Positions 4,002 to 9,682 of a stretch of DNA of 14,165 bases are shown one piece after another (positions within the stretch are counted from its first letter, which is position 1; each line of letters begins with the position of its first letter). The notes under the pieces are model-generated. The model saw nothing but the letters and a program-made list of their open reading frames with translations. It was not told the DNA's origin and did not search any database. Made by a program: the position numbers and the translations under genes. Origin of the DNA: Promethearchaeota archaeon (lineage in GTDB: Archaea > Asgardarchaeota > Thorarchaeia > Thorarchaeales > Thorarchaeaceae); the NCBI GenBank assembly GCA_014728035.1, contig WJMJ01000064.1, forward strand, positions 1-14,165, in the 5' to 3' direction.

Positions 4002-5024
4002 ATGACGTATTTACAAGAACAGCAAAGGAATTTGCCAGGATTCGATGAAAAAACAAAGGTCACCAAAATCGAGGGATACCTCAATCAAATGAGAATCTTT
4101 GTTAATGGAAGATGTAATCATAGATGTAGATATCCGAATGGTATAATGTGGTGTCATTCACGGACCGAGATGGCAGGAGAAAAAGGGGATATGAGAAAGA
4201 AAAATTGGATTATGCTGCTTGATGGAATGAAGAGATGGAGAATGTCATCTCTAAAGATTGCAGGAATGGAACCTACAATCCATCCCCATCTACTTGATCT
4301 ATTAGATCTGACACAATCGTATAAAATTGATGACTTCTCCATAACAACAAATGGATCACGTCTCGAAAGATTTCTACCATATCTTATTGAAAGAGGAATG
4401 ACTCAAATCACAGTATCATTGCACTCAATGGACCCAATAATTTTCAAGAACATTACTGGAGGAAGTATCCGACCTATATGGGAAGCATTGGATGTCTGTT
4501 CTGAACACGATATCAAAGTTAAATTGAATGTTGTTGCACTTAAAAATTTGAATGATGATATTTCAGCACTTCTAGACTATGCATCGTTGAAAGAGTTTGA
4601 ACTCAAGCTCTATCAGTTGTTATGGCAACCACACAATACTAGAGAATACCAGAAATACCATATCGATTGGAGAGAAATTATTCAACCATATGTATGTGAC
4701 TGGAAAGGGCTTGAACTCATCGAATATGTCGATTCTCAACGATATCGTTATTCATTCGAAACCGAAACGGGCTCAATAGTAACTGTGAATGGATTTGACC
4801 GCAAGGATTCAAGCAAGTATCATCTATGTAGAACATGTCAATATCGAAACAGATGTGAAGAAGGATTGATGGGTTTTGGCTTTGAAACTGAATATAATCT
4901 TAAATTGAATCCATGCTATCTACGTCCAGAATTTAATTTTGATTTGAAGCCGTTTCTTAGGGAAGAATTTGAGAAAGTCATTGGATATTTGAACGCAATC
5001 ACATCTAAAGGAGGTAATTTATAG
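4002..5024 (+). CDS. MoaA-like radical SAM enzyme with non-canonical CX3CX8C motif and C-terminal auxiliary Fe-S motif (ORF track starts at GTG 3969; ATG 4002 preferred)
   Basis: MRIFVNGRCNHRCRYPNGIMWCH (Cys codons at 4113, 4125, 4152), GMEPT (GGEP variant), SITTNGSRL, VSLHSMDPIIFKNITGG, VKLNVVALKNLNDD, and C-terminal CRTCQYRNRCEEG...LNPC (Cys at 4827, 4836, 4854, 4914). The motif order follows GTP 3',8-cyclase (MoaA), but key residues differ, so no gene symbol is given. Confidence 0.88.
   Translation: MTYLQEQQRNLPGFDEKTKVTKIEGYLNQMRIFVNGRCNHRCRYPNGIMWCHSRTEMAGEKGDMRKKNWIMLLDGMKRWRMSSLKIAGMEPTIHPHLLDLLDLTQSYKIDDFSITTNGSRLERFLPYLIERGMTQITVSLHSMDPIIFKNITGGSIRPIWEALDVCSEHDIKVKLNVVALKNLNDDISALLDYASLKEFELKLYQLLWQPHNTREYQKYHIDWREIIQPYVCDWKGLELIEYVDSQRYRYSFETETGSIVTVNGFDRKDSSKYHLCRTCQYRNRCEEGLMGFGFETEYNLKLNPCYLRPEFNFDLKPFLREEFEKVIGYLNAITSKGGNL
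5009..5015 (+). promoter_or_regulatory. Shine-Dalgarno site of the NACHT gene inside the 3' end of the radical SAM gene; stop/start overlap
   Basis: AGGAGGT at 5009-5015, 8 nt before GTG 5024. The TAG stop (5022-5024) shares its G with the GTG start (TAGTG). Confidence 0.8.
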
Positions 5025-8000: not shown

Positions 8001-9682
8001 TGAACAAGGAATTTGTGAATCTAAGTCTTGGGACAATTGAAATTTTCAGTAACATGAGATTCAATCCATGGGATGAGGAACGAGTGAATGAGCTTGTTGA
8101 GATGTGGTGGAGTTCCAACCTAACAAATGTTGAGGATGCAATCCACATAATCATGATGATATCTAAAGAAAGACAGGATTCAAATTTGGGTTATATCAGA
8201 TATGAAGGAATTGATATTCTCAAACGAGTAGTAAAATGGTTGGAAAAAAAACAAATTTCTACAAAGAAGAATTTCTTTGAAAAATTGATTAAATCTAACA
8301 TTGATATTACTGATATCCATATTAGAGATCATCTGTATCCAATATACGAGGAAATTAAGGATAGAATATATTTAGATAATCTTTTGATTAAACGATATCC
8401 AGAATATTTGCGAGGTCTTCCAATATTACCGCTTTCAACAGAATCTTGGGCTAAGCATATTGACAAAATTGAAAGATCTGAGATTCTCAATTGGAGTAAG
8501 TTCATGGAGATATATCTTGAAGAAGACAATATACAGAATATTGAAGAAGCTATAGAGTTGTTTGATGAAATTATTGAAGAAACGGGATTTGATTCTGAAA
8601 CAAGTGATACCCTGATTGATTGGGTAAGAAAAAGACAAATCAAGGATATTGCCATATTTTCGCTTCACATTCTGAAATTAGCAACACAACCCCAAATTCA
8701 TCACCATAGATTACATTCTGTCAAAAGGAGGAACCTACTAGAGAGCTTAAATCCACTAGAAGAAAAAGCTCCCAATGTATACAAATATCTCCTAGACATC
8801 ATAAAGGATTCACTGGAATACCCGATTAATTATAGAATGGAACTATCGTTCGTGTTGGAATATATTCCACCAAGAGACCTGATTAATACCATTAAACCGT
8901 ATTACATGAAATTTTCTGAAAGGGGTGAGCTCATTTTCCCAGATGTTGATAAGTTGATGTATAGACATGGAAGGAAATCAGATATTGACCTACTTATCCG
9001 TAGTTTGAATACACATCCTAGAAATCTCGGAGAGATTTGGGATGAAAATCCAGGTTTATCTAAAACCATATTTGAAGAACTCACTAACCCACTGTCTAAA
9101 ATATTTTTTGAGATAGATAAACTGGGAGGGTATGATATGTATTTTGAATATATCTCCGACCATCCAGTGATTGCTGAAGAACATCTTATCATATTTTTGA
9201 AAAACAATTTGATTGATCAGTGTTATAGATTCTTTGAAGAAACAGATACACTGAAAGCAATTGCACGAAAATATTGGAAAAGGATTTTCAAGGAAAAAGA
9301 TAGTGGAGGTGTTGATATGCTTTACCTTGGCTACATATTCCAAGGATATGATGACGAGATAATTCAACATATCGCGAATAGAATTGATCAAGTATACGAA
9401 GAGAGGGCAAATCAGGAAGATGATTATCTTGATTCTTGGTCCGGTCGTTCGAGGTCAATAAAAGTCCTAGATATCATTCAAAAAGAAAATGGATATTCAG
9501 GACTAAAGAAAATTCTTTGTTATGTTGAACATCCGCATTCAAAAGAAATCGTTCTGCACTATTTGGCAAAATCAGCAAAATCTGAAGGAATACCAAAAAA
9601 AGAGATCGAGAAGTTAGAAACCTTTCAATCACTTGGTAGAGAAGCAAAATGGCATATCCTGCAAAAGTTTGATGATAGTTAG
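5024..9682 (+). CDS. Large STAND-class (NACHT-type) P-loop NTPase, 1552 aa: unknown N-terminal domain, NACHT module, long alpha-helical C-terminal region
   Basis: Walker A ILLVGSAGSGKT (GSAGSGKT at 5894-5917, residue about 291), PIFLEL strand, NACHT-type Walker B VIFLDGWDEL (first D at 6230), sensor-like CIISSR, TPLDLEIL (GxP/PL-type motif) and HLIPYLSAEY (winged-helix motif of STAND modules). The remaining about 900 aa are rich in L/I/E/K amphipathic helices. Confidence 0.88.
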   Translation: MPIEKEMIPEILRDLGALGKIGDAEQILDIGRDNKWTFRLLLIAYLIKGTTFHEISKIIEFGFSKERKDSLYYIFQFGKIRSNLSMPEKWFENEEEYINGSKNARSIPSRREDLFRKTELGYELESKNGADGIALILFTELLQAFLKTYGTSFNQIIENASQEEKSEKLFQRIFLLDDEGQKTWLFDKVQNIIESYPALSSISKTSRDEKDILPHIQLALLEKLRKHNHAFRQKPRKKKLLIEYEPIYLLSEHSDDGEKFSINKWLKNSLEYDQNNDTEMKPKKNPILLVGSAGSGKTFWMINKSVELWNQFIKDTYEDKHNRLIPIFLELGSVSFGKTKRGNTLLYGEKDPIWYVEDEPEEVSSGFLRDNTLGAMLEKSSQYIRKILERWEHQDIEFVIFLDGWDELGPLEKNELKRFILACIENEIHCIISSRSRDNHITNLVSDSFMIDKPDDENYVEYLRFRNMEDDFLGRISNWFPDLTPLDLEILGRVPKLEEIKQGRVPVYRTWIELQTLPSESRVSKLKSRTTLDKLMERELFEGIPLMKWIRERSNPSSVWNILTKTALLQRDGNNTRLSYDELIKENPLLENLLEKRYGSGDSPHPEISRNHLIPYLSAEYTFRKYLQGENVSFEGDIETFTFLVEILRYDSERRRLDSFPEYMVKLTSMEIAVMIHLESESRRLRFNTHPIELKPKFLSRNIMSTPMYTALFRAFIRYWNSSKNENIRYLILRHYTALLEKEINPENFIIPVLEIEEKLGNISYYNFKSDNASQDDLQIYDVEGFLKLSLDRSSIEKFLVKSLHQQPWLLPWVCRIVSDEFIPDIKGIAEKMSDEKVILDFVRVHTNDFSQMDKTWLEFLITNAKRLESVLLWDKTAIYIIQNQTSIDESEIGYLLEVMSKTHVNEHRKFGILNCLKRVKVKLSDKRIRDISKMILNGQLDLKYGIAIIIMQENADITVEQIIKTLKDTKSRRWVELLIPGLLREDYDDEKVNKEFVNLSLGTIEIFSNMRFNPWDEERVNELVEMWWSSNLTNVEDAIHIIMMISKERQDSNLGYIRYEGIDILKRVVKWLEKKQISTKKNFFEKLIKSNIDITDIHIRDHLYPIYEEIKDRIYLDNLLIKRYPEYLRGLPILPLSTESWAKHIDKIERSEILNWSKFMEIYLEEDNIQNIEEAIELFDEIIEETGFDSETSDTLIDWVRKRQIKDIAIFSLHILKLATQPQIHHHRLHSVKRRNLLESLNPLEEKAPNVYKYLLDIIKDSLEYPINYRMELSFVLEYIPPRDLINTIKPYYMKFSERGELIFPDVDKLMYRHGRKSDIDLLIRSLNTHPRNLGEIWDENPGLSKTIFEELTNPLSKIFFEIDKLGGYDMYFEYISDHPVIAEEHLIIFLKNNLIDQCYRFFEETDTLKAIARKYWKRIFKEKDSGGVDMLYLGYIFQGYDDEIIQHIANRIDQVYEERANQEDDYLDSWSGRSRSIKVLDIIQKENGYSGLKKILCYVEHPHSKEIVLHYLAKSAKSEGIPKKEIEKLETFQSLGREAKWHILQKFDDS

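Follow-up and report, generated by a model that had tools for sequence, protein, structure and literature searches.

Among described defence loci, the KpAvs2-Avap1-Avap2 operon of Klebsiella pneumoniae combines an anti-phage sensor of the STAND (signal transduction ATPases with numerous domains) or NLR-like (nucleotide-binding leucine-rich repeat) type with an enzyme of the radical S-adenosylmethionine (SAM) kind, Avap1, whose role is unexplained and which is required only against certain phages (Bechon et al. 2024, PMC11564622). It is the sole operon of a STAND protein and a radical SAM enzyme that we found in the published literature. Here we describe a pair of genes on a complete 14,165-bp contig (C30, GenBank WJMJ01000064.1; hereafter the window) of a 4.33-Mb metagenome-assembled genome (MAG; G000, completeness 97.9%) of an Asgard archaeon. 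One gene (positions 4002 to 5024, forward strand) encodes a 340-aa radical SAM enzyme, and the other (5024 to 9682, forward strand) is an open reading frame (ORF) for a 1552-aa protein that we judge to be a NACHT-type STAND nucleoside triphosphatase (NTPase). The pair most likely represents a defence system of the NLR type that has not been described before. The sequence-only reading of this DNA knew of no system with such a pairing, and we likewise found no pairing of a MoaA-like enzyme with a NACHT protein in the published literature.

The likeness to the KpAvs2 operon has its limits. KpAvs2 has a nuclease effector of its own at the N-terminus and needs a third protein, Avap2 (DUF6375), whereas in the window pair an effector is not recognisable and no third gene is conserved. 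The NTPase from the window has no PADLOC match to Avs at E ≤ 0.1. The two enzymes are also set apart by description, since the window enzyme derives from MoaA and keeps residues for a triphosphate, while Avap1 reportedly has no nucleoside triphosphate (NTP) pocket (PMC11564622).

Two other families of radical SAM enzymes have to be compared. Prokaryotic viperins (pVips) are antiviral effectors that act on NTPs and lie in the same structural neighbourhood of MoaA and viperin; a sister clade of the window enzyme is coupled to a kinase, as are some pVips. Viperins, however, have no auxiliary Fe-S domain. The window enzyme does have one, in addition to a CX3CX8C motif and the coupling to an NLR-like sensor. 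MoaA itself (Staphylococcus aureus, 1tv7/2fb3) is the best full-length match in sequence and fold and likewise has two Fe-S cluster sites, but its motifs are a canonical CX3CX2C and a three-Cys CX2CX13C, in contrast to CX3CX8C and CX2CX5CX19C in the window enzyme.

On the sensor side, described bNACHT proteins are mostly encoded by single genes and carry fused effector domains. The window protein resembles the bNACHT/NLR-related proteins and the STAND receptors of PMC13581612 in its NACHT-type NTPase, its long C-terminal putative sensor and the defence-island contexts of its relatives. It differs in that the only enzyme of the system is a separate, translationally coupled radical SAM protein, and in that the host is an Asgard archaeon. 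Ophion, a validated defence system, consists of the radical SAM protein OpnA, a PHP protein and a PRTase (bioRxiv 10.1101/2025.09.30.679545); its essential, viperin-related radical SAM enzyme is a proposed nucleotide modifier, but Ophion has no STAND protein, and its PHP and PRTase genes are absent from the window and from the orthologous loci.

Few features tie prokaryotic to eukaryotic innate immunity as clearly as NLR/STAND sensors and the radical SAM enzyme viperin do, and no known organisms are more closely related to eukaryotes than the Asgard archaea. In the window pair, a single operon would unite both themes, the enzyme being a MoaA derivative that evolved separately and no viperin. 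Should the enzyme be the effector, the pair would provide the first case of an NLR in control of radical chemistry, probably with a new antiviral modified nucleotide as the product. The pair is also relevant to the radical SAM protein of KpAvs2/Avap1, whose role is unexplained.

Coupling, conservation and distribution of the gene pair

The start of the radical SAM gene was placed at the ATG at position 4002 because the orthologues begin at the same Met-Thr. The sequence-only reading had described an overlap between the two genes and an internal Shine-Dalgarno (SD) sequence, and both were confirmed. The TAG stop of the radical SAM gene (5022-5024) and the GTG start of the NACHT gene (5024-5026) share one base (TAGTG). 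An SD-like AGGAGGT (5010-5016, forward strand) is located 7 nt ahead of this GTG, inside the final codons of the radical SAM gene, where it encodes Gly-Gly.

Relatives of the NACHT protein were sought among 5.8 billion clustered proteins using both a single sequence and a profile as the query. Seven orthologues of 1552-1572 aa were the sole relatives found, and the profile search for deeper relatives returned the same seven proteins only. One of them, at locus L022, is annotated Candidatus Thorarchaeota; this locus has the same coordinates as the enzyme match in genome G313, which belongs to the same family as the window genome. The upstream side is visible at six loci, namely the window, L004, L005 (from an ‘archaeon’ MAG), L006/L007, L022 and, in part, L023. 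At all six, the radical SAM gene lies directly upstream of the NACHT gene. Conversely, a STAND gene of ∼1570 aa always follows the close homologues of the enzyme at these loci, so that the recurrent downstream neighbour anticipated from the sequence is indeed present. In two cases, a ‘short’ version of the enzyme in the databases is a truncation introduced by gene calling, and the full frame with its Cys motif is open.

The spacing between the two genes ranges from -4 to +3 nt in five loci, with a GGAGG-like run in the terminal codons of the radical SAM gene; the arrangement with the SD inside the upstream gene recurs in L004, L005, L006 and L022. The NACHT gene starts with GTG or TTG in four of the five. 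The tight coupling is thus conserved and is not a chance feature of the copy in the window. The pairwise identities of the two genes also vary in parallel, with r = 0.94 for 10 pairs that are not independent of one another. The copy in the window diverges most from the others, its identities being 54-56% in the enzyme and 40-44% in the NACHT protein.

The flanks of the pair loci share no conserved third gene, and no conserved small ORF accompanies the pair. An orphan protein does recur nearby (L004, 8231-9799, reverse strand; L022, 18353-19582, forward strand; L005, 9322-9852, forward strand), with E = 3e-53 between two of the copies and a weak PD-(D/E)XK match in the short copy. It was considered as a core component and rejected because its position and orientation vary and it is absent from the window.

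The Gly-Gly codons at the end of the enzyme (5007-5016 in the window, and likewise in L004, L005, L006 and L022) double as the GGAGG of the SD for the NACHT gene, and this sequence may answer two constraints at once. The Gly-Gly resembles the GG tail of MoaA and lies 0-4 residues from the C-terminus of the enzyme. Since it occurs in the NACHT-linked copies only, and since its codons form the downstream SD in all five loci, it cannot be used as a MoaA-type gating motif.

The distribution of the pair is patchy. When an enzyme profile was scanned over 400 Asgard species genomes, the enzyme was found in three, which represent three genera of one family, and it was absent from a genome of the same genus. 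No relative was found in viral contigs, and a scan of metagenomes gave three contigs only, all short and uninformative. In the window genome, the pair is a low-GC insert. Its GC content is 34.5% compared with 39.5% for the genome, a value that falls within the lowest 0.7% for windows of this size, while the flanks are native at 39.0% and 40.8% and have a typical tetranucleotide profile. Flanking direct repeats or tRNA genes that would mark an insertion site were not found. For the MATE transporter gene next to the pair in the window, G313 has an orthologue with 76% identity, located on a contig other than that with the pair of G313. From the annotation of the L022 orthologue, the shared family, this MATE orthologue and the native composition of the flanks, the contig is assigned to an Asgard archaeon of the Thorarchaeota type. 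At the orthologous loci, the neighbours include HinfI and N6_N4 methyltransferase, McrBC with a methyltransferase, PemK, ParE, PIN, a Schlafen-like SLFN_AlbA_2 protein and integrases.

The two proteins and the relatives of the enzyme

The enzyme is a clear member of the radical SAM superfamily (Pfam Radical_SAM, PF04055; 63.6 bits compared with a gathering threshold of 29.5). The top-ranked NCBIfam match is MoaA, at 112 bits compared with a cut-off of 284.05, and the second of the two MoaA equivalogs (NCBIfam TIGR02666/TIGR02668) scored 103.3 against 325.25. Viperin models gave ∼50 bits (viperin_w_prok, 49.9 compared with a cut-off of 180), and the pVip profiles of PADLOC matched at E = 1e-14 over the radical SAM core only. 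A family profile searched against the PDB sequences found S. aureus MoaA at 8e-27 and viperins at ∼1e-10. An AlphaFold2 (AF2) model of the enzyme, based on a 109-sequence alignment, had a mean predicted local distance difference test score (pLDDT) of 93.3; with this model, Foldseek ranked MoaA (1tv7) first, with a template-modelling (TM) score of 0.65 over 339 columns, the full length, while GDGT-MAS and viperins scored ∼0.5. The enzyme had been described from the sequence as having MoaA-like motifs and an auxiliary cluster, unlike viperin, and the sub-cut-off viperin score, the auxiliary Cys motif and the closer fold and sequence match to MoaA all agree with that description.

In order to place the enzyme, 1.84 billion representatives were scanned in full with HMMER, and a tree was then built of 18 proteins with the SAM-cluster motif at the N-terminus, 17 with the motif at the C-terminus (permuted) and 91 canonical MoaA-like proteins. 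The clade of the window enzyme stands apart from the canonical proteins with a support of 96. Its SAM-cluster motif, CX3CX8C (C38, C42 and C51; 4113-4154, forward strand), has an aromatic residue before the third Cys and a loop expanded by 6 residues. The three Cys are invariant in 109 sequences, and the CX3CX8-10C expansion is kept in all 18 N-terminal-motif members and, at the C-terminus, in the 17 permuted members.

The auxiliary-cluster motif is CX2CX5CX19C (C276, C279, C285 and C305; 4827-4916, forward strand). C276, C279 and C305 align with the three auxiliary Cys of MoaA. The extra Cys is part of a C285-x-E-G motif that is present in 35/35 family rows and falls in a gap in 81 of the 91 canonical MoaA-like rows. 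The MoaA residues R17, R71, K163 and R192, which we take from the 2006 MoaA-GTP structure to hold the triphosphate, correspond to R31, K85, K174 and K202 in the clade, all of them basic. MoaA N124 is replaced by T and D128 by H; the TTNG and KxN motifs are retained. The position of MoaA R266, an R in 73 of the 91 canonical rows, is Y, F or L in the clade, and R268 is absent too. R17, R266 and R268 are the key arginines of MoaA named in the title of PDB entry 2fb2, and R268 is indispensable for SAM cleavage (PMC12625886).

The genomic setting was also searched for the molybdenum cofactor (Moco) pathway. The sequence-only reading had noted that the window contains no Moco genes, and this extends to the genome, in which neither MoaC, MoeA_N, MoaE nor an above-cut-off MoaA was found (controls matched in 11 of 14 genomes). 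Because MoaA, MoaC, MoaE and MoeA are undetectable there, the genome probably cannot make molybdopterin cofactors. None of the homologues of the enzyme lies in a Moco operon. From the scores below the cut-offs, the lost residues, the altered motifs and the lack of Moco genes in the genome, we conclude that the enzyme is derived from MoaA and yet is not a GTP 3′,8-cyclase.

We also examined the genes linked to more distant members of the clade. In a Heimdallarchaeota MAG (GCA_050009915.1; locus L028, 3335-11047), genes for a PIN_2 protein, a NACHT protein (792 aa), a 960-aa protein with weak HEAT matches and a radical SAM relative (348 aa) lie on one strand. This NACHT is Pfam-valid (30.1 bits compared with the cut-off of 26.7), and an IS605-type TnpB adjoins the genes. 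The link between NACHT and radical SAM is therefore seen again, in a different gene order. No homology was detectable between the 960-aa protein and the C-terminal half of the window NACHT protein.

The partner is not always a STAND protein. At L008 (4766-12395) and on the P0011 contig, radical SAM relatives of 402-430 aa (∼30% identical) lead a Mokosh-like operon with an MkoA helicase (PADLOC, 2e-92), a 392-460-aa orphan and a PLD nuclease (MkoB/DrmC); L008 also has a divergent CARF/Csa3 regulator upstream. At L033 (10001-13103) and L034 (3705-6807), a radical SAM relative is followed by a 178-aa orphan and then by an HD+HD_assoc_2 protein resembling deoxynucleoside triphosphate hydrolases, all between two integrases. 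In Pseudomonas aeruginosa, P. paraeruginosa and P. putida (L029/L030/L031, 7444-9489), the genes for a nucleotide kinase, a permuted radical SAM protein (329 aa) and a 170-aa orphan overlap in one cassette. The kinase matches PDC-M51B (3e-26) and VakA (4e-16) of PADLOC, and the cassette adjoins a cluster of dynamin/septin-like GTPases and GmrSD. Members of the clade are thus linked time and again to defence modules and nucleotide enzymes. The Pseudomonas kinase-radical SAM cassettes are a tractable candidate defence cassette and offer an easy route to the chemistry of the clade. The identification of the Pseudomonas relatives as OpnA of Ophion was rejected, as their context is kinase, radical SAM protein and 170-aa protein. 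A shared adaptor was also rejected, since a comparison of the 170-aa Pseudomonas protein, the 178-aa HD-linked protein and the N-terminal domain of the NACHT protein showed no similarity.

The permuted proteins deserve a description of their own. In P0052, P0054, P0063 and 14 more representatives (17-20 clusters; 8001-8990 at L029-L031), the first strand and the CX3CX8-10C loop of the radical SAM core are found ∼20-40 residues from the C-terminus. By BLASTP, residues 71-330 of the window enzyme align with residues 16-280 of the subject, and residues 14-53 with 277-325. The group is monophyletic with a support of 98. This looks like a natural circular permutation, and we found no published description of it.

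At normal thresholds, none of the families in Pfam, PADLOC, NCBIfam or PHROG matches the NACHT protein, and a profile search of PDB sequences with its alignment gave nothing meaningful. Its NTPase module (residues 286-460; 5879-6403, forward strand) was recognised by Pfam NACHT and by motifs. Walker A (G291-T298; 5894-5917, forward strand), Walker B (F398-E407, with DGWDE; 6215-6244, forward strand) and a sensor-1-like SSR motif (S433-S434-R435) ∼30 residues past Walker B are all invariant in the seven orthologues. When the orthologues were scanned singly, six of the seven matched Pfam NACHT below threshold, with a best E value of 7.5e-6, and other STAND families came next. Alignment of the NTPase region with the Pfam-valid NACHT of L028 by hhalign gave E = 2e-4. 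The nearest language-model feature clusters consist of NACHT and NACHT+HEAT proteins, with a score of 0.96. Taken from the motifs, the sub-threshold Pfam matches and the language-model neighbours, we judge the protein to be a divergent NACHT-type STAND NTPase.

The module is preceded by an N-terminal domain (approximately residues 1-280; 5024-5863, forward strand), which has no family match and a conserved content of Lys and Arg and is a candidate adaptor. Atlas matches to this domain score ≤0.84 and serve as leads only, and its AF2 pLDDT is ∼30. The C-terminal region of ∼1090 aa (6404-9679, forward strand) also has no family match and probably consists of helical repeats. Identity to the orthologues is 34-43% in the C-terminal half compared with 42-49% in the N-terminal half. 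The C-terminal region thus appears to be the fastest-evolving part, as sensors usually are, and is a candidate sensor. Outside the NTPase module, no effector family was detected by Pfam, PADLOC or PHROG. No catalytic effector is evident, since His and Cys are nowhere invariant outside the module and, in the orthologue alignment, residues 1-280 contain no invariant His, Cys or Glu.

Proposed function and rival explanations

We propose that the pair is an obligate, horizontally mobile operon that may provide Asgard archaea of the Thorarchaeota type with an NLR-type antiviral or conflict system. Both sensing and switching would fall to the 1552-aa protein. Its fast-evolving helical C-terminus would recognise a cue derived from the invader, upon which the NACHT module would bind NTP and oligomerise, and the basic, non-catalytic N-terminal domain would then recruit or release the radical SAM partner. 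The radical SAM protein would be the effector because it is the only enzyme in the system, and it would either convert an NTP to an antiviral or toxic nucleotide by radical chemistry or deplete the NTP. Since the basic triphosphate residues are kept, the guanine-specific Arg is lost and a fourth auxiliary Cys is present, the product is most likely derived from an NTP and different from that of MoaA.

These parts are not equally secure. The structure of the operon, its conservation, patchy distribution and context, the family relations and the residue pattern were observed directly, and the defence function, the nucleotide substrate and the control of the enzyme by the NACHT protein are inferred from them. 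We consider a defence role for the pair probable. The sequence-only reading had come to the same overall interpretation, which gains support from the conserved STAND neighbour, the defence-type contexts of the relatives, the failure of PADLOC to match the pair to any known system and the lack of a Moco setting. The full mechanism, in which an NLR-type switch controls a nucleotide-modifying radical SAM effector, is a more tentative proposal, with a chance slightly short of even. A still wider reading holds that this is an archaeal NLR without an effector of its own, whose activation leads a separate radical SAM executioner to make a new antiviral nucleotide, and that the clade is a second viperin-like lineage, derived from MoaA and recruited by NACHT, Mokosh, HD-hydrolase and kinase modules, with permuted forms in Pseudomonas. 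We regard that reading as possible and on balance rather doubtful.

Several observations weigh against this proposal. The match of the window protein to Pfam NACHT (PF05729) has 16.5 bits compared with a gathering threshold of 26.7 (E = 0.008, profile positions 2-157 of 167). An AF2 model of residues 1-800 from the 7-sequence alignment had a pLDDT of 39 and a predicted TM score of 0.22, which makes both the NACHT assignment and the lack of an effector domain less secure. Because this model was unusable, the assignment rests on the motifs and the sub-threshold profile matches. An effector domain may hide in residues 1-280 or 461-1552. The fourth auxiliary Cys would close the open iron with which MoaA binds its nucleotide, and an enzyme of the twitch/SPASM-like kind, with a protein or peptide as its substrate, would fit equally well. 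Radical SAM enzymes are slow and depend on a reductant, and neither property sits well with an inducible executioner. The radical SAM protein may also be an accessory like Avap1, since Mokosh systems are complete without it. The family is tiny, with seven pairs, and the statistics are correspondingly weak. Finally, the window's own flanks (phosphatases, a MATE transporter and genes without a family match) hold no defence genes. The idea that such loci sit in defence islands was borne out at the orthologous loci, with their restriction-modification, McrBC, PemK/ParE/PIN, Schlafen-like and integrase genes, and not in the window itself. Co-folding of the enzyme with residues 1-280 of the NACHT protein gave an ipSAE of 0.00 with an unfolded partner, and is hence neutral on binding.

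The four-Cys auxiliary motif, which may be fully ligated as in twitch/SPASM-like enzymes, and the loss of the guanine-binding Arg also suit an enzyme that acts as a maturase. It would modify the NACHT protein or an unannotated peptide by a cross-link, an epimerisation or a similar change, and the modified NLR would be the active immune protein. Consistent with this, Avap1, the radical SAM partner of KpAvs2, reportedly has no NTP pocket (PMC11564622), and the radical SAM protein of a ternary conflict system has been read as a peptide modifier (Kaur et al. 2020, PMC7159879). On the other hand, the clade pairs with an MkoA helicase, an HD hydrolase and a nucleotide kinase, which are unrelated to one another, and a partner-specific protein substrate is therefore disfavoured. 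The basic residues that bind the triphosphate in MoaA are kept, and no conserved small ORF lies alongside the pair. We consider a maturase unlikely.

The relatives of the enzyme that occur in contexts without any STAND protein, together with the large parts of the NACHT protein that could not be modelled, might instead point to two independent defence genes that travel together. One would be a constitutive, viperin-like nucleotide-modifying enzyme and the other a self-contained NLR with its effector in an unrecognised N- or C-terminal region. Enzymes of the pVip type reportedly need no sensor. Such independence is hard to reconcile with the strict co-occurrence in 6/6 visible loci, the preserved stop/start overlap, the SD within the end of the radical SAM gene and the non-ATG starts of the NACHT gene. 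The parallel divergence of the two genes and the lack of an invariant His or Cys outside the NTPase module also argue against it, and we find this explanation distinctly improbable.

It is well known that STAND regulators can carry a DNA-binding domain at the N-terminus. The NACHT protein could accordingly have no part in immunity and be a transcription regulator in the style of MalT or AfsR, with a basic, possibly winged-helix N-terminus, that controls a rare metabolic radical SAM enzyme. The invariant Lys/Arg-rich N-terminal domain, including a PRKKK patch, would suit this role, as would a perfect 10-bp inverted repeat in the promoter region (3931-3940 and 3950-3959). However, Pfam scans detected no helix-turn-helix family in the protein. 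Moreover, the patchy, non-syntenic distribution, the low-GC insert, the defence, toxin-antitoxin and integrase neighbours and the sister enzymes inside Mokosh and kinase/GmrSD islands are not what such a regulator would lead one to expect, and we give it little chance of being right. A divergent housekeeping MoaA (GTP 3′,8-cyclase) for the molybdenum or tungsten cofactor, lying next to an unrelated gene, can be dismissed almost with certainty: MoaA is the best match in sequence and fold and some databases label the relatives cyclic pyranopterin phosphate synthase, but the scores are far below the equivalog cut-offs (112 vs 284 and 103 vs 325), R266 and R268 are absent though R268 is essential, the cluster motif departs from the canonical one, MoaC, MoaE and MoeA are missing from the genome, and the enzyme occurs in just three of the 400 Asgard genomes.

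Flanking genes in the window

The remainder of the window was annotated as well. The sequence-only reading had placed a gene resembling an SRA-restriction endonuclease ∼3 kb upstream of the pair, and this was not upheld. Pfam gave no match at E ≤ 5 for the ORFs at 3-266 and 326-850, a search of PDB sequences gave no SRA chain for them, and a six-frame search of the genome for SAD_SRA (PF02182) found nothing on the window contig. Further along, Pfam identifies two tandem paralogues of histidine phosphatase (His_Phos_1; 954-1661 and 1684-2385, forward strand), 22 nt apart. The second of these genes overlaps the end of the convergent MATE transporter gene (2368-3750, reverse strand).

The 250-bp intergenic region between the divergent MATE and radical SAM genes contains a perfect 10-bp inverted repeat, TGTAATGCAT ... 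ATGCATTACA, with its arms at 3931-3940 and 3950-3959 and a 9-nt spacer. This sequence (3931-3959) could be an operator. On the other side of the pair, a large ORF (12356-14164, reverse strand) runs off the end of the contig. It has a weak match to a NosD-like beta-helix (E = 7e-7, far below the cut-off) and probably encodes a surface protein.

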